NCBI GenBank assembly: GCA_964426155.1
Contig: CAYROY010000107.1
Location: forward strand, 1 to 59,900
Length of the DNA stretch: 59,900 nt
Direction: 5' to 3'
Origin: an uncultured Actinomycetota bacterium
GTDB taxonomy: Bacteria > Actinomycetota > Humimicrobiia > Humimicrobiales > Humimicrobiaceae
Part shown: positions 46,205-54,977 of the stretch, in pieces
Layout: each line of letters opens with the position of its first letter
Position numbering within the stretch: the stretch's first letter is position 1
Translations under genes and position numbers: made by a program
The notes under the pieces: model-generated
Seen by the model: only the letters and a program-made list of their open reading frames with translations
Told to the model about the DNA's origin: nothing
Database searches by the model: none

Positions 46205-47707
46205 TCATGATTTTCTTATGGATGATTTCTTTATGAATTGTTTATGTTGTAAACCTATTATAATCCCTCCTCCAATAAGTATATCATCATCATAGAAAAC
46301 GGCAGATTGTCCCGGTGTCAGAGATTCGACAGGTTCTTTAAAGTTTATTATTGCAGTATTGCATTCTTTAATTAATATTTTTGCCGGTACCGGCTTGCCA
46401 TTGTATCTTATTTTCACATCTGCAGTAAACTCTTTTGATGGAGGTTTTCCCGATATAAAATTAACACTTTTAATTACGGTGCTTTCTGATGCGAGGTCTT
46501 TTTTTTCAGATACAATTATTGTATTTTTTTCTGGAATGATTTTTTTTACATAGAGGGGTTCTGAATGGCTTATTCCAAGTCCTTTACGCTGTCCTACAGT
46601 ATAATAAGGAAATCCCCGGTGTTGTCCCAGATATCTTCCATGTATATCAATGATTCTGCCTTTCTTTATTTTTTCTTTACAGTTGTTTAATAATTCATGG
46701 TAGCTTTTACCCTTTATAAAACAGATGTCCTGACTTTCTTCTTCAGGTACAGCAAAGCTGTAAGATTCTTTTAATTTTTTTTTAATATCTTCTTTAGTAA
46801 AAAAGCCGAGGGGAGTCTTTATATGTGAGATCTGTGACTGGTTAAGTTTCCAGAGGAAATAACTCTGCTCCTTTAGCTGGTCAATACCCTTTCTTATTAA
46901 AAAAGAGTTATCTTTATAATTTTTTTCTATGATACAATAGTGTCCTGTAGCCATATATTTTGCACCTAATTTTCTGCATATCTGCAGCAAGTGGCCAAAT
47001 TTTATATATTTATTGCAATCTATACATGGATTTGGGGTCATTCCTTCAATATACGACCTGCAGAAAGGTTCTATTATCTTTTCTTTGAATATATCCCTGA
47101 GATCTATGATAAGATGTGGAATATCAAGTAACCTGCATGCAATTGCTGCGGACTCAATATCCGAAGAAATCCATGATGTTATCCTTTCTTCTAGAGAAAG
47201 CATATGATCAGGGATTATTTTCATTGTAACCCCCATCAAGCTGTAACCCCTGTCTTTCAATATCTTTGCTGCTATTAAACTATCTATCCCTCCACTCATG
47301 GCAACAGCTGCTGTCCTTTCTTGTTCCGGTACTTTTTTTTCTTTTATGAGCAGGGGGATGTACGAAGAAAGCATCTGGCGGAAAGCTCCAAGTGCGACAT
47401 CGGCAGGACCGACTTTATCAATTAAAATATCAGGAAAATTTTTCTTAATTTCTGCTTTAGAGATTTTTGCTGCATTAAAAAAAGTCCTGTTCTTTGCGAT
47501 TCTGGCTATGAATTCTGAGGCCGATATAAGAAGGCTGCCGCCAAAAGCACTGAAGCTAATCTCTTTTATTATCCCGTCTTTAATAAGGCAGTAGTATATT
47601 ACTTTTTCTTTTGAAAAAAGACTGCTGTCTTTTCCTGTGCAATTATAATTTGATAATATATTTGTGTTTTCTGGATCCAGGAAGCTCATTTTATACGGAA
47701 AGTACAA
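46205..47707 (-). CDS. mnmA: tRNA 2-thiouridine(34) synthase MnmA fused to an N-terminal degenerate IscU/NifU-like domain
   Basis: From about residue 130: PP-loop AVAMSGGIDS, NPCIDCNKYIKF and the MnmA body. The N-terminal roughly 125 aa aligns by eye to the IscU scaffold (DGIIKEISFSAFGGSLLISASEF versus the IscU FKTFGCGSAIASSS region). The start could be TTG 47707 or ATG 47689. Confidence 0.8.
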   Translation of the reverse strand: MYFPYKMSFLDPENTNILSNYNCTGKDSSLFSKEKVIYYCLIKDGIIKEISFSAFGGSLLISASEFIARIAKNRTFFNAAKISKAEIKKNFPDILIDKVGPADVALGAFRQMLSSYIPLLIKEKKVPEQERTAAVAMSGGIDSLIAAKILKDRGYSLMGVTMKIIPDHMLSLEERITSWISSDIESAAIACRLLDIPHLIIDLRDIFKEKIIEPFCRSYIEGMTPNPCIDCNKYIKFGHLLQICRKLGAKYMATGHYCIIEKNYKDNSFLIRKGIDQLKEQSYFLWKLNQSQISHIKTPLGFFTKEDIKKKLKESYSFAVPEEESQDICFIKGKSYHELLNNCKEKIKKGRIIDIHGRYLGQHRGFPYYTVGQRKGLGISHSEPLYVKKIIPEKNTIIVSEKKDLASESTVIKSVNFISGKPPSKEFTADVKIRYNGKPVPAKILIKECNTAIINFKEPVESLTPGQSAVFYDDDILIGGGIIIGLQHKQFIKKSSIRKS

Positions 47708-47852
47708 TTATAAGAATAATTTTATACCTGGATAATTATATGATATTAATAAAAATAAATGTAGGATAAATGAAAATAGAAAAGATATTCAGGGTTTTAA
47801 GAATATTATTCAGGTTAAGGTTGTGGGCAGTGATAGAAGTGATAGAATCTTT

Positions 47853-47880
47853 TTGAAAGTATCAAATATATGAATATAAT
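47853..47880 (+). promoter_or_regulatory. Candidate promoter of the ilv-leu operon
   Basis: TTGAAA (47853-47858), 16-nt spacer, TATAAT (47875-47880). A tandem GTGATAGAA GTGATAGAA sits immediately upstream (47830-47847). Confidence 0.45.
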
Positions 47881-47960
47881 AAAAATTAGTAACAGTATAA
47901 TTGTTTTAAGGTATTATCTATGTTATTATAATCAATTATTGTTTTTACAGGGATTTAGAA

Positions 47961-48101
47961 ATGGAAATAATGAGAGACACAAGAGAGCTATTTTTTAAGA
48001 TTGAAAAAGGTTTTATTTTTAATAAATTTGCCGTTTTCTGCTTATTAGTGGTGGTCCTTATTATTTCTCTATGTGTCCTACCGGTGGGTATTATATCCTA
48101 G
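47961..48101 (+). CDS. Candidate Leu/Val/Ile-rich leader peptide of the ilv-leu operon (46 aa)
   Basis: MEIMRDTRELFFKIEKGFIFNKFAVFCLLVVVLIISLCVLPVGIIS. 15 of the last 22 codons are Leu/Val/Ile, including the run LLVVVLII at 48042-48065. It ends 112 nt before ilvD and its stop codon lies inside a hairpin arm. Confidence 0.45.
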   Translation: MEIMRDTRELFFKIEKGFIFNKFAVFCLLVVVLIISLCVLPVGIIS

Positions 48102-48150
48102 GTACAGGATATTTCTTATTCCCCAATCTTTATTTAATCCTGTATTTTTC
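48093..48150 (+). terminator. Candidate attenuator: antiterminator and terminator alternatives upstream of ilvD
   Basis: ATATCCT (48093-48099) can pair with AGGATAT (48106-48112). Alternatively TACAGGAT (48103-48110) pairs with ATCCTGTA (48137-48144), followed by TTTTTC. The two helices share 48106-48110, so they are mutually exclusive. The terminator loop is large (26 nt). Confidence 0.4.
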
Positions 48151-48213
48151 AAATTTAAAGGTTTTTGGGTTTTGCATATATTTTTTTAAAATTAAAAAAG
48201 AATAGGAGTAAAA

Positions 48214-49872
48214 TTGAGAAGCGACAAAATGAAAAAAGGAGTTTCAAGACTCCCTCACAGGTCTATATTTAAATCACTGGGTTTTACTGACATAGAAATA
48301 GAAAGGCCTATTATAGGGGTGGTTAATTCTTATAACGAACTTATACCCGGACATATGCACCTTAATAATATTGCAAAAGCTGTCAAGGCTGGAATAATGA
48401 TAGCAGGTGGAACGCCGCAGGAATTTAACACAATAGGTGTCTGTGACGGGGTAGCAATGAACCATACAGGCATGAAATACTCACTTGTTACCAGAGAGAT
48501 AATAGCTGACAGCGTAGAAGCAGTATCAATCGCACATCCTTTTGACGGACTGGTCCTTATACCATGCTGCGATAAGATAGTACCGGGTATGATAATGGGT
48601 GCACTCAGGCTTAATATTCCTGCAATCGTGATGAGCGGAGGTCCAATGATGGCCGGAAGATTTGGGGATGAGGACATAGACTACAGCACCACCTATGAAG
48701 CTATAGCCAGATATGGGAAGGGTGAATTGAAAGATGACGACATATATGAGATAGAAGAAGAGGCATGCCCGACTTGCGGCAGTTGTGCAGGGATGTTTAC
48801 TGCTAATTCCATGAACTGTTTGTCCGAAGCAATAGGGCTGGCTTTACCGGGTAACGGTACAATTCCTGCTGTATTCTCGAAAAGATTGAGGCTTGCGAAG
48901 GAAGCGGGGTTTAGAATAATGGATCTGGTAAGAAAAAATATCAGGCCCAGAGATATTGTAAATAGTGATTCTATAAGAAATGCAATTGCAGTGGATATGG
49001 CACTTGGATGTTCTACTAATACAATACTGCATCTTACTGCGATTGCAAGCGAGGCAAAAGTACCATTTACTTTAAAGCTTGTAAATGAAGTAAGTAACAG
49101 TACACCCAATCTCTGCAGGCTTAGCCCTGCCGGGAAACATCATGTCCAGGATCTCTATGCGGCAGGAGGTATAGGAGCGGTTATGAATGAGCTTTACAGG
49201 AACGGGCATATAAACGGCACATCCCTTACTGTGACCGGGAAGAAAGTAGCAGAAAACATATCTAATATTGAAATAAAAGACAATAATATAATAAGGACTG
49301 TTAAGAACCCTTACCAGAAGGATGGCGGACTGGCAATATTGTTTGGTAATCTCGCACCGGATGGCTGTGTTGTAAAAAGGTCGGCTGTTGATCCATCGAT
49401 GTATTACCATAAAGGAAAAGCAAGAGTCTTTGAGGCCGAAGAGGATTCACTTAATGCAATTATGAAAGGCATGATAAAACCCGGAGACGTAATAGTCATC
49501 AGATATGAAGGTCCAAGGGGAGGCCCGGGAATGCGTGAGATGCTTGCACCCACATCAGCTATTGCGGGATCAGGTCTTGATAAACAGGTAGCACTTATTA
49601 CAGATGGCAGATTTTCCGGTGCAACCAGAGGAGCCTCGATAGGGCATGTTTCCCCTGAAGCACAGGCAGGCGGGCCGATAGCAATAGTAGAAGAGGGCGA
49701 TTTTATAGAAATCGATATTCAAAAATATTCTATAAATCTTCTTGTTTCCGAAACGGAGATAAAAGACAGATTGAGTAAATGGAAACCGCCAGAATTAAAA
49801 ATAAAGGAAGGTTATATGGGAAGATATGCAAGACTTGTTCAATCTGCTGCTGAGGGTGCAATCTTAAAATAA
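48214..49872 (+). CDS. ilvD: Dihydroxy-acid dehydratase
   Basis: IlvD/Edd family: RSD..KKG..R.PHRS N-terminus, [36 protein letters not shown] start with an AGGAG RBS at 48204-48208. Confidence 0.95.
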
Positions 49873-52193: not shown

Positions 52194-53360
52194 ATGTTAA
52201 AAAAATATATATTGACTCCTGGACCTACAGCAATTTCAGAGGATGTGCTTATAGAACATGGAAGACCTCTTATTCACCACAGGTCTCCAGAATTCGGTAA
52301 TATATTTTCAGAGGTCCTTGAAAAATTAAAGAAACTTTACAGGACGAACAATGATGTATTTGTGTTGACTTCCTCGGGTACGGGAGCGATGGAAGCAGCA
52401 GTGACAAATTCTTTTAAAAAAGGAGACAGGGTCCTGGTAGCAAGTAGTGGAAAATTTGGGGAAAGATTCAAGGAGGTCAGTGAGGAATTTGGCCTGGAAG
52501 TAATTCATCTTGACTATACGTGGGGCAGTGCAGTAAATCCCGGAGATATACGAGAAAGACTTGAGTCAGATAATAAAATAATGGCTGTGATGGTAACACA
52601 TAGTGAGACCTCTACAGGTGTGATCAATAATATAGAATCTATTGGAGATATAGTTAAGGATTATCCTGCTATTCTAATAGTGGATGCTATAACTGGTCTG
52701 GTAACGACAGACCTTGAAACAGACAGATGGCATCTTGACATGGTAATAGGCGGGTCACAGAAAGGTATAAGCGCTCCTACGGGTGTTGCGTTTATAAGCG
52801 TGAGCGACAAGGCATGGAAATTAATAGAACAGTCCGATCTTCCAAGATATTATTTTGACCTCAAAGCAGCCAGGAAAGCAATGCAAAAAAATCCTCCCCA
52901 GACTCCCTGGACGCCGGGAATCTCAATAATAATGGCTATTAATAAAGCCCTTGATATTCTATTTGAAGAAGGTATGGAAAAGGCTTTTGAGAGACACAGG
53001 GCTATGGCGAATGCATGTTGGGTAGGAGCTGAAGCTCTGGGTCTTGAGCTTCTAGTGGCAGACGAGGACAGCAGAGGTTTTTCGACTACTGCCATAAAAG
53101 TCCCGGAAAACATAGACGGCAAGGAACTTGTAAAAATGATGAGAGTCAAATATGGTGTTACTATAACAGGCGGACAGGGAAAGCTTGCCGGTAAAATAAT
53201 TAGAATAGGCCATCTCGGATATGTGGGCATGTTTGATATAATTATAGCTTTTTCAGCTCTTGAAATGGCACTTTCAGATCTTGGTTTCAAATTTAAAACG
53301 GGTGCAGCATTAAGTGCTGTACAGGAAGTGTTTATGCACAATAATTATTTTAATATTTAA
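52194..53360 (+). CDS. Class V (AGT/SerC-like) PLP-dependent aminotransferase, possible phosphoserine aminotransferase
   Basis: LTPGPT start, SSGTGAMEA, THSETSTGV, and the PLP-lysine context GGSQKG. Lies immediately upstream of serA. Confidence 0.8.
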   Translation: MLKKYILTPGPTAISEDVLIEHGRPLIHHRSPEFGNIFSEVLEKLKKLYRTNNDVFVLTSSGTGAMEAAVTNSFKKGDRVLVASSGKFGERFKEVSEEFGLEVIHLDYTWGSAVNPGDIRERLESDNKIMAVMVTHSETSTGVINNIESIGDIVKDYPAILIVDAITGLVTTDLETDRWHLDMVIGGSQKGISAPTGVAFISVSDKAWKLIEQSDLPRYYFDLKAARKAMQKNPPQTPWTPGISIIMAINKALDILFEEGMEKAFERHRAMANACWVGAEALGLELLVADEDSRGFSTTAIKVPENIDGKELVKMMRVKYGVTITGGQGKLAGKIIRIGHLGYVGMFDIIIAFSALEMALSDLGFKFKTGAALSAVQEVFMHNNYFNI

Positions 53361-53372
53361 ATAGAGATTATC

Positions 53373-54977
53373 ATGAAAAGAATAAAAAAGAAGGTATTGA
53401 TAACAGATGGACTTGCTGTAGAGGCTTTAGATAAATTAGGGGAGCATTTTACGGTTGATGAAAAAAAGGGTATTTCAAGGGATGAATTGAAAAGAATAAT
53501 ACCACAATATCATGCTCTTATAATAAGAAGTTCGACCAGGGTTGATTCGTCAATAATTGAAGAAGCAGATAAAATGGAAATAATAGGAAGAGCTGGTATC
53601 GGAGTTGATAATATCGATCTGGAAGCTGCTACAAAAAAGGGGATAATAGTGGTAAATGCACCCGCAAGTAATTCTGTTACCGTAGCGGAGCATACAATAG
53701 CTCTTATGCTTGCACTTGCCAGGAAAATTCCCAGGGCTAATTTTTCCCTTAAGCAGGGAAAATGGGAGAAATCAAAACTAAAGGGAGTGGAGATAGAGGG
53801 TAAAACCCTGGGAATTGTGGGATTTGGCCAGATTGGAGGGCTTGTAGCTAAAAAGGTTATCGGACTGGGCATGAATGTGATAGCATATGATCCATTTGTT
53901 ACAGAGGACCGCTTCAGGCATCTTGGAATAAAAAAGGCTGGAAAGCTCGAGGACCTATATAGTGAATCAGATTTTATTTCAATACATCTGCCCAAAAACA
54001 GGGATACTATTGGAATGTTTGATAAAAAAGAATTATACAAGATGAAAAAGGGAACAGCTATACTAAACGTTGCCAGAGGGGGCATATTAGTGGAAAAAGA
54101 TCTGGCAGAATCTATTAAAGAGGGGCATATAGGCGGTGCTGCACTTGATGTTTATGATAGTGAACCCTGTACAGATTCACCGGTATTTGAACTGGAAGAT
54201 GTGGTATGCACACCACATCTCGGTGCTTCTACGACAGAAGCCCAGAGCCGTGCAGGTATTATAATAGCTGAGCAGGTAATAGAGGTACTGGGTGGAGGAA
54301 CACCAAAATTTCCTGTAAATGCACCGTCAGTAAGACCCGAGCAGATGGAAGCCCTTTCTCCTTTTTTTGAACTTGTTGAAGATATGGGCAGCCTTTTTAT
54401 AAACCTATTTGAAGGTGATCTAAACAGGATAAATATTGGTTATCATGGAAAGGTATCAGAATATGATGTAAGGGTTCTAACGTCTATGATACTGGTAAAG
54501 ATAATGGGAAAGCATACAGCTGAAAACGTAAATGTTATAAATGCAGACCTTATTGCAAAAGAGGCAGGGCTGAAAATAAAAGTTGAGAAAAACAGTGAAT
54601 CCAGTGATTATGTCAACCTTATTACCATAAAGGGTACAGGACCCGACAGTGATTTTTCAGTATCCGGTACAATAACAGGCAAGAAGAATATTCCAAGGTT
54701 TATATCAATAGATAAATTTGAGATAGACATGGCTCCTTCAGAGCATATGGCATTTATAAGGTATAAGGATATACCTGGACAGATAGGAAAGATAGGCACC
54801 GCATTTGGGAAACTTAATGTTAATATTGCTGCTATGCACGTGGGCCGCAAGAAAATGAGCGGAAATGCAGTTATGGGCCTCAATCTTGATAGTGAAGTAA
54901 CTGATACAATGGTTGAAGAGTTTAAGAAATCCTCTGGATTCAGCAGCATAAAGATTGTTAATCTATACAGGAAATGA
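53373..54977 (+). CDS. serA: D-3-phosphoglycerate dehydrogenase (long form with ASB and ACT domains)
   Basis: NAD fold GIVGFGQIGG, LNVARGG, the TPHLGAST catalytic region, about 530 aa in length, and a C-terminal ACT-like segment (DIPGQIGKIGTAFG). Confidence 0.9.
   Translation: MKRIKKKVLITDGLAVEALDKLGEHFTVDEKKGISRDELKRIIPQYHALIIRSSTRVDSSIIEEADKMEIIGRAGIGVDNIDLEAATKKGIIVVNAPASNSVTVAEHTIALMLALARKIPRANFSLKQGKWEKSKLKGVEIEGKTLGIVGFGQIGGLVAKKVIGLGMNVIAYDPFVTEDRFRHLGIKKAGKLEDLYSESDFISIHLPKNRDTIGMFDKKELYKMKKGTAILNVARGGILVEKDLAESIKEGHIGGAALDVYDSEPCTDSPVFELEDVVCTPHLGASTTEAQSRAGIIIAEQVIEVLGGGTPKFPVNAPSVRPEQMEALSPFFELVEDMGSLFINLFEGDLNRINIGYHGKVSEYDVRVLTSMILVKIMGKHTAENVNVINADLIAKEAGLKIKVEKNSESSDYVNLITIKGTGPDSDFSVSGTITGKKNIPRFISIDKFEIDMAPSEHMAFIRYKDIPGQIGKIGTAFGKLNVNIAAMHVGRKKMSGNAVMGLNLDSEVTDTMVEEFKKSSGFSSIKIVNLYRK

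Follow-up and report, generated by a model that had tools for sequence, protein, structure and literature searches.

A probable leader-peptide attenuator upstream of the ilvD-led branched-chain amino acid operon in a low-GC family labelled Actinomycetota

Leader open reading frames (ORFs) rich in Ile, Leu and Val and overlapping terminators were described upstream of actinobacterial ilvB genes in 2005 (PMC1262725; also PMC10272879), and the ilvB-OMG and ilvB RNA motifs from the Breaker laboratory have been reinterpreted as upstream-ORF (uORF) attenuators (PMC10272879). Here, a comparable element is described in contig CAYROY010000107.1, which belongs to a metagenome-assembled genome of 1.29 Mb (37.6% GC, 86% complete) from an uncultured bacterium labelled Actinomycetota. 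The window is the whole 59,900-nt stretch that was analysed, and coordinates refer to its forward strand, which also carries all the features of the element. Sequence evidence makes it probable that a 46-codon ORF and the hairpins at its end form a leader-peptide (ribosome-mediated) transcription attenuator. The controlled operon would be the one encoding branched-chain amino acid (BCAA) biosynthesis, with the gene order ilvD, ilvB, ilvN, class-V aminotransferase, serA, leuA, leuC, leuD and cimA.

The closest described systems are the actinobacterial ilvB leaders, that is, the uORF of Corynebacterium ilvBNC (ilvB-II motif) and the candidates from Mycobacterium and Streptomyces. The locus shares with them a short Ile/Val/Leu-rich ORF whose 3' end overlaps or abuts a terminator hairpin (predicted in the present case) followed by U's, the presence of one copy per genome about 100-150 nt before the first ilv gene, and the Actinomycetota label of the genomes. 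Furthermore, some of the ilv operons already described also include serA (ilvB-serA1), a linkage that has been mentioned for Actinobacteria too (PMC1262725). In contrast, no sequence similarity exists between these leaders and the present one, which has 41-58 codons versus 15-17 there. It also differs in its BCAA tract of about 19 codons resembling a membrane helix, in its low GC content, in having ilvD as the first gene and in a 26-nt terminator loop that holds part of the antiterminator. The motifs ilvB-OMG and ilvB are likewise conserved RNAs upstream of BCAA genes with an in-frame BCAA-rich uORF, but the window gives no Rfam match over 47500-48400.

Among the textbook attenuators, those of ilvGMEDA (ilvL, 32 amino acids) and ilvBN (ivbL) in E. 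coli and Salmonella share with this locus mixed Ile/Leu/Val codons that would allow multivalent sensing, a single segment serving as antiterminator 3' strand and terminator 5' strand, and a first gene located about 100 nt further on. In contrast to them, the leader described here has no clear region 1 or pause hairpin, its hairpins are far weaker and A/U-rich, and its stop codon is part of the antiterminator, with the terminator arm 0-2 nt away. The E. coli pyrBI leader (44 codons), also a textbook case, resembles it in being a long ORF that reaches up to or into the terminator 5' arm, so that a ribosome near its end blocks the hairpin. However, pyrBI senses UTP through polymerase pausing instead of amino-acid codons and has no antiterminator. 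Finally, T-box riboswitches (RF00230) also control amino-acid genes by antitermination in Gram-positive-type genomes, but none is present at the ilv leader.

The leader ORF spans 47961-48101 (ATG at 47961, TAG at 48099-48101) and encodes the 46-residue peptide MEIMRDTRELFFKIEKGFIFNKFAVFCLLVVVLIISLCVLPVGIIS. Ile, Leu and Val account for 15 of its last 22 residues and for 14 of its 19 C-terminal codons (74%). Among them is the run LLVVVLII (48042-48065, codons 28-35), eight consecutive codons that, from the sequence and its composition, would be the regulatory ones. The stop codon ends 112 nt before the TTG start codon of ilvD at 48214. The ORF, the 15 Ile/Leu/Val residues among its last 22, the LLVVVLII run and the 112-nt gap had been noted in an original prediction, made before any database search, and direct reading of the sequence confirmed all of its coordinates. 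In the genus, a GAGGA or AGGGA ribosome-binding site precedes the leader. The ilvD gene (48214-49872; NCBIfam dihydroxy-acid dehydratase, E = 4.8e-246), with its own ribosome-binding site AGGAG at 48204-48208, is the first gene of the regulated operon.

A word-based protein search with the 46-residue peptide returned the peptide itself as the sole match. The element is widespread in the family. An RNA covariance model built on the ORF tail and the hairpin was searched in 87 genomes of the class and matched in 59 of them, nearly always exactly once in each, all in one family and in 11 of 19 genera. A peptide profile searched in 80 genomes of the family gave one strong match per genome in 68 of them, covering 16 of 17 genera, each at the known ilv-linked locus. 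Extra matches were weak and lay inside long membrane proteins, and no free-standing leader paralogues appeared in these 80 genomes. In the 68 genomes with a strong match, one copy each, the frame stays open for 34-58 codons, with in-frame length changes. Genera missed by the RNA model still carry an Ile/Leu/Val-rich ORF upstream of ilvD, e.g., MEHKEYRNTLFSSIKGKTFKCISMPAIIILVILSVCLVL followed by a stop codon. The ORF is thus conserved and BCAA-enriched in relatives, a test that the original prediction had set.

At the level of the genus, the 506-nt intergenic DNA is conserved, most strongly at 48051-48213. The ten readable relatives (10/10) carry an ORF of 43-50 codons at the equivalent place, with a diverged N-terminal half, a C-terminus kept as VVLIISLxVLLVGIIS before the stop, and the stop codon within the same ATATCCT arm. 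The C-terminal VGI(L/I)S is nearly invariant among leaders.

Concerning its genomic position, the distance from the leader stop to ilvD is 108-131 nt in 24 of the 30 best-scoring loci, 159 nt in two and 115 nt in one (27 of 30 in total), and it is longer in further loci. Upstream neighbour genes vary even within the genus; therefore, the ORF travels with the operon and not with mnmA, its upstream neighbour in the window. One genus includes several genomes where ilvD is missing from that place, so that the ORF and its hairpin precede ilvB-ilvN-aminotransferase.

Some variations of this arrangement were also observed. At six loci of genus g3 (L160, L115, L131, L132, L135 and L141), the leader and hairpin stand directly before ilvB-ilvN with a spacer of about 370-400 nt, and in the two g3 genomes checked the sole ilvD-like gene is a 46-47% identical homologue located elsewhere, without a leader. 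At two other g3 loci (L150 and L155), the spacer between hairpin and ilvD has grown to 190-310 nt of A/G-rich low-complexity sequence with AAGAAA-type repeats. Outside the family, five genomes (G026 and G028-G031, 1.0-1.6 Mb) of the sister family f3 of the same class have no ilvD homologue at E <= 1e-30, which suggests that the BCAA pathway has been lost there.

The leader tail is hydrophobic over residues 24-46, and its last 19 residues have a mean Kyte-Doolittle value of 2.99, a segment long enough to span a membrane. The ORF could thus be an independent gene for a small tail-anchored membrane protein, with the hairpin as its own terminator, an ilv operon transcribed from a separate promoter within 48150-48213, and a synteny without any regulatory link. 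This alternative agrees with the charged N-terminal half followed by a hydrophobic C-terminus of 20-24 residues, and with a Pfam search of the peptide that gave only sub-threshold matches, all of them to membrane segments. It also agrees with the loose N-terminal motif (MNTNKE.F..K.KN) kept across genera, and with a stem-loop and U's right after the stop codon, which have the look of a plain terminator.

Because of this resemblance to a membrane helix, the tail was compared with 1065 membrane-like 19-residue segments taken from the long ORFs of the host genome. Ile, Leu and Val make up 69% of the 49 distinct leader tails (last 19 residues) versus 48% (standard deviation 10%) of the membrane-like segments, and the tail in the window, with 14 of 19, lies in the top 0.7% of the latter. 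Conversely, the leader tails avoid Phe, Ala, Met, Trp, Tyr and Thr (2.8% in total versus 29%), their non-BCAA positions being Ser, Cys and Gly.

The evolution of the sequence was then considered through the ratio of non-synonymous to synonymous substitution rates (dN/dS) in pooled close pairs. It was 0.05 for ilvD (dS 0.36), 0.70 for the N-terminal part of the leader and 0.35 for its last 20 codons, and the synonymous divergence of the leader was about half that of ilvD. This high N-terminal dN/dS, together with the low synonymous divergence, indicates that the N-terminal peptide is barely constrained as a protein, whereas constraint on the nucleic acid extends over the entire leader. A small membrane protein would be expected to show purifying selection along its length and a membrane-typical composition, and neither was seen. 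Moreover, 48 distinct leaders all end in sense codons of the form AT[TC] [CAT]TA TC[CT], with TCC as the Ser codon in 45 of the 48 and CTA or ATA with an invariant third base. These codons are rare in the host genome (TCC represents 12.7% of Ser codons and CTA 7% of Leu codons), whereas codons -6 to -12 freely change synonymously.

An independent membrane-protein gene would leave several features unexplained: an ORF segment that is complementary to the terminator 5' arm, tracks the centre variants of each genus and is fixed in rare codons; a stop codon that always abuts the helix; an ORF that remains at the head of the operon when ilvD is absent; and the lack of free-standing paralogues. Two genera, furthermore, have no promoter-like site between the hairpin and ilvD. 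This explanation is therefore considered unlikely. It had already been raised in the original prediction; the membrane-like tail was borne out and leaves room for a second role, but the RNA switch is not explained by it.

Returning to the attenuator, the end of the ORF can take part in two alternative helices. Helix 1 (A:A') pairs ATATCCT at 48093-48099 with AGGATAT at 48106-48112 (7 bp, -6.2 kcal/mol). Its arm A (AUAUCCU), which comprises the Ile45 and Ser46 codons plus the initial base of the stop, would be the 5' strand of the inner antiterminator helix. Helix 2 (B:B') pairs TACAGGAT at 48103-48110 with ATCCTGTA at 48137-48144 (8 bp, 3 G-C pairs, 26-nt loop, -7.6 kcal/mol), and it can be extended by two G.U pairs to 10 bp (48101-48110 with 48137-48146, -9.6 kcal/mol). 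Directly after it comes TTTTTC at 48145-48150, whose U-tract (UUUUU at 48145-48149, then C) follows the 8-bp form of the stem and is the predicted termination site. According to the folding, the centre arm (GGUACAGGAUAU, 48101-48112) provides both the antiterminator 3' strand (48106-48112) and the terminator 5' strand (48101-48110). The two helices are mutually exclusive, as 48106-48110 are common to both. Arm B' (AUCCUGUAUU, 48137-48146) is identified as the 3' strand of the terminator hairpin by the RNAalifold consensus and by covariation. Both hairpins, the TTTTTC tail and the participation of ATA TCC TAG in one arm of the 7-bp helix were found just as they had been predicted.

The terminator helix is supported by comparison among relatives. 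RNAalifold on the genus alignment returns helix 2, with 2 of its 10 pairs covarying within the genus. Over 51 sequences, in an alignment fitted to the RNA model, 7 of the 10 pairs show double changes and 93.6% of the cells are paired, while none of 500 shuffles reached that score and no slid register was comparable. The compensatory changes that the original prediction called for in this helix are therefore present. The variants include CAGGAU/AUCCUG, UAGGAU/AUCCUA, ACGGAU/AUCCGU, CAGGAC/GUCCUG and CAGGAA/UUCCUG, and an A-to-G change at the shared centre position retains pairing with both partners. Most leaders matched by the RNA model have UUUU no more than about 8 nt away from the stem; in the matched leaders, the loop measures about 16-38 nt, mostly 22-30, with a variable sequence. 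Two further helices were tried in the genus and rejected as neither conserved nor canonical, namely a second terminator downstream of B' (CAAAG-N7-CUUUG before a T-run) and the pairing of CCCC in the loop with GGG at 48158-48170.

Genera beyond the reach of the RNA model point in the same direction. Their centre is AGGAUGA(U), AGCAGGAUGA or GGUAGGA, and it has two matching partners: an arm of 8-14 bp within the ORF, 6-10 codons ahead of the stop, and a 3' arm. The arm/centre pairs differ by genus, as UCAUCCU/AGGAUGA, UUAUCCUGCU/AGCAGGAUGA and UCCUACC/GGUAGGA, and the longest of these helices have codon-shuffle p values of 0.005-0.05. Their ORF arms are made of the regulatory codons themselves (AUC-AUC-CUN, i.e., Ile-Ile-Leu). 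In two species of one sister genus, two states are predicted as minimum-energy folds. The first combines the ORF arm:centre helix with a canonical terminator, AACAGCAG...CUGCUGUU followed by U7, and the second is a long centre:3'-arm helix that swallows the terminator 5' arm. As modelled, this two-state leader is a four-segment attenuator.

As for folding energies in the window, a transcript that does not yet include B' (48075-48136) adopts as its minimum-energy fold a two-part antiterminator of -11.7 kcal/mol, in which 48083-48084 and 48086-48090 pair with 48123-48124 and 48117-48121 around A:A'. The 5' strand of its outer helix is 48083-48090 (GG.GGGUA; codons Pro41, Val42, Gly43 and Ile44), and its 3' strand (48117-48124) lies within the pyrimidine-rich 26-nt terminator loop (48111-48136). 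This loop would therefore have a function, since it carries the antiterminator 3' strand. Up to the transcription of B', no fold is more favourable than the antiterminator (-11.7 versus about -10 kcal/mol for the terminator). Helix 1 is part of the minimum-energy fold in 42 of 54 leaders, and most relatives share the same two-part structure, which is highly stable (-14 to -21 kcal/mol) in several genera. The outer helix occurs in 36 of the 54 leaders versus a mean frequency of 0.41 in loop shuffles, a modest excess that weakly suggests it is real.

With these elements, a working mechanism can be proposed. Transcription would start at a putative promoter, P1, with an extended -10 at 47921-47932 (TGtTATTAT overlapping TATAAT, about 30 nt upstream of the leader ATG), and would enter the 46-codon leader ORF. 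As the RNA emerges, the end of the ORF (48083-48099) would pair with the sequence after the stop (48106-48124) to form the two-part antiterminator, which would form first because it is transcribed first. Its centre arm AGGAU would also be the 5' arm of the terminator (48101-48110 with 48137-48146), which runs into the U-tract at 48145-48149. If charged Ile, Leu or Val tRNAs were scarce, the ribosome would stall in LLVVVLII (48042-48065), the antiterminator would persist, and transcription would read through into ilvD. If they were in good supply, the ribosome would pass codons 41-46 and melt the antiterminator, the centre arm would pair with B', and transcription would stop near 48150. The sequences establish the ORF with its composition and conservation, the terminator helix, the mutually exclusive folds and the constant association with the ilv operon; translation of the ORF, stalling, termination and the timing that frees the terminator are what we infer. 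Since the leader has no clear region 1 or pause hairpin, an untranslated leader should read through.

Regarding P1, the TGnTAWWAT block keeps its distance to the leader ATG in every member of the genus and in the other genera, and at locus L143 a scan finds TTTAAA-16-TATAAT at the equivalent place. The best sigma-70-like match of the intergenic region is a different site, TTGAAA-16-TATAAT (11 of 12) at 47853-47880 in the window, about 45 nt upstream of P1.

Several observations weigh against the attenuator and must be set beside this mechanism. Taken singly, the sequence of the window gives little: the fold of 48030-48160 that the original prediction asked for reaches -19.8 kcal/mol versus -18.8 (standard deviation 3.2) for shuffles, so it is no better than these (z = -0.30), and the 7-bp helix A:A' is equalled by 18% of ORF codon shuffles (p = 0.18). 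The terminator is weak: its stem has 8-10 bp with 3 G-C pairs, the loop measures 26 nt, and the U-tract is short and interrupted. A pattern scan for terminators does not detect it because of its loop. In the window sequence alone, the structure is not above chance. Furthermore, compensatory changes had been sought in both helices, but those of helix 2 have little counterpart in helix 1: A:A' is almost without covariation over the 51 leaders, although its core AUCCU:AGGAU is paired in 95.7% of the cells. Genomes with the centre AGGAC or AGGAA are mostly uncompensated in arm A, and one compensates (CUG UCC). Helix A:A' is retained only because of the synonymous-site and sister-genus evidence.

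The geometry of the ribosome is a second difficulty. A ribosome that has reached the stop codon, with Ser46 in its P site, would have a footprint of about 48084-48110 and cover the terminator 5' arm. In the folding, the terminator is lost when either 48085-48105 or 48084-48110 is masked, since only 0-2 nt separate the stop from its 5' arm. The original prediction had held that a ribosome at the stop would allow the terminator to form; masking 48085-48105 did the opposite. Termination would instead need the centre arm to be freed with the ribosome at codons ~38-43, or just after its release, as B' emerges. The complementary claim, that stalling upstream leaves the antiterminator free, stands in part. 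With the ribosome stalled in LLVVVLII, its footprint would end no later than about 48078, and the antiterminator, from 48083 onward, would stay free. Nevertheless, the equilibrium fold with the ribosome stalled upstream is still the terminator, so antitermination must be kinetic or rely on the larger two-part antiterminator.

The literature also advises caution, since PMC1262725 cites work in Streptomyces coelicolor in which candidate regulatory codons of the ilvB leader were mutated and regulation was reportedly unchanged. A leader of such appearance is, hence, not proof of classical attenuation. In addition, the likeness of the peptide to a tail-anchored membrane protein and its loosely kept N-terminal motif, set out above, count on the same side.

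Finally, ilvD could be fed independently from the interval between the hairpin and the gene. A promoter-like TTTAAA-17-TATATT (9 of 12) lies there at 48154-48182, and a TATAATTGAAAT block is conserved in several genera; both would also suit the membrane-protein alternative. In the window, the block TTTTGCATATATTTTTTT at 48170-48187, between the terminator and the ribosome-binding site of ilvD, is kept in 11 of 11 genus members. It may represent the -10 region of this putative second promoter, or else a site bound by a protein, and a single genome from a different genus also has TTTTGCATATAG. The block core TTGCATAT was tried as a genome-wide operator or promoter motif and discarded, with 117 copies versus 84 expected. 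In two other genera (loci L146 and L143) the interval measures 45-55 nt and has no promoter-like site. A second promoter, if real, would leave the attenuator with less influence on the operon, yet the switch would still call for an explanation.

Taken with these objections, the core of the original prediction, a BCAA-codon-rich leader ORF coupled to an alternative antiterminator and terminator, is supported by the conservation of the ORF, the covariation of the terminator, the constraint on synonymous sites, the helices of sister genera and, in two genera, the lack of a promoter-like site from the hairpin to ilvD.

A further possibility is a dual role, in which the attenuator also releases a 46-residue hydrophobic peptide that acts in the membrane, for instance on a BCAA transporter or as a feedback signal. 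The unusual length of the leader, its membrane-like tail, the nearly invariant C-terminal VGI(L/I)S and some N-terminal conservation across genera would fit this idea. Nevertheless, the N-terminal part evolves close to neutrality, there is no consistent neighbour besides the ilv operon, and the invariant C-terminus coincides with arm A and with the GG of the Gly codon in the outer helix, so RNA constraints explain it. The dual role therefore seems quite improbable.

Less credible still is a switch independent of translation, be it a riboswitch, a leader that binds a protein or a Rho-dependent element in the pyrimidine-rich loop, to which the ORF would be incidental. The loop at 48111-48136 is C/U-rich and G-poor, like Rho-loading sites, the helices of sister genus g4 have no following U-tract, and the Streptomyces codon mutations without effect, as cited in PMC1262725, would agree with it. 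On the other side, the frame is open over 16 genera in sequence of about 30% GC, where stops are frequent, and the Ile/Leu/Val bias goes far beyond a membrane-like composition. There is, moreover, no Rfam match and no conserved core resembling a ligand pocket, and loop sequences vary freely. All in all, such a switch is very hard to credit. A type I toxin was considered and discarded in view of the single copy, the synteny and the constant position at the head of the ilv operon.

As for known RNA families, Rfam 15 at the gathering score gave no T-box, leader family or riboswitch in the region, and at E <= 10 over 47500-48400 it gave only three noise matches. The only T-box of the host genome (RF00230, 113 bits) lies outside the window, at positions 4036-4336 of contig C25 (locus L192, 1501-1801), and most genus members have exactly one per genome. 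The host T-box precedes a gene for a TrpB-like (trpB2-type) pyridoxal-phosphate enzyme and not an aminoacyl-tRNA synthetase gene. The original prediction had deemed a peptide attenuator notable on the grounds that such genomes usually use T-boxes. This argument does not hold for a lineage labelled Actinomycetota, where ilv leader ORFs have already been described (PMC1262725, PMC10272879). A same-family genome with the same leader and a 75% identical ilvD bears this label as well, and the actinobacterial marker WhiB (PF02467) was not found in the 86%-complete host genome, so the phylum assignment rests on the record label. A quick regular-expression search of the genome for leader ORFs with His, Phe, Cys or Tyr runs gave no His run and nothing convincing, and thus offers no evidence that other operons here use leader peptides.

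Two neighbouring regions of the window deserve a comment. Upstream of the leader, on the reverse strand (46205-47707), the product of mnmA is extended at its N-terminus by a domain of about 125 residues that weakly matches NifU/IscU-like proteins (TIGR03419, E = 6.5e-6). Within the operon, the class-V aminotransferase and a full-length phosphoglycerate dehydrogenase (serA) lie at 52194-54977, between ilvN and leuA. The best NCBIfam matches of this aminotransferase, of the aspartate-glyoxylate or pyridoxamine-pyruvate type, are below cut-off. Genes of the serine pathway would then be under a BCAA leader.

No curated Rfam family covers the leader, and its details set it apart from the leaders known so far, yet its probable mechanism is a textbook one. 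It could also represent a distinct attenuator design, although this is doubtful. Such a design would comprise a leader of 41-58 residues ending in a membrane-like Ile/Leu/Val tract of 20 codons, no region 1 or pause hairpin, a loop that stores the antiterminator 3' strand and serves as a spacer, so that the terminating ribosome has time to depart, and a peptide that might have a second job in the membrane. If true, sensing and signalling of BCAA status would be combined in one mini-gene.

The general significance is modest, the mechanism being a textbook one. The locus is also a case where single-sequence thermodynamics fails and only comparison exposes the switch. The leader family is absent from Rfam, and the present alignment and covariance model could seed an entry. 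For the bacteria themselves, the result provides a regulatory annotation, spanning an unannotated ORF, a promoter, an antiterminator and a terminator, for the main BCAA operon throughout a family of uncultured bacteria that have small, low-GC genomes and bear the label Actinomycetota. If the attenuator reading is correct, this operon would be controlled in the lineage by ribosome sensing rather than by a T-box.

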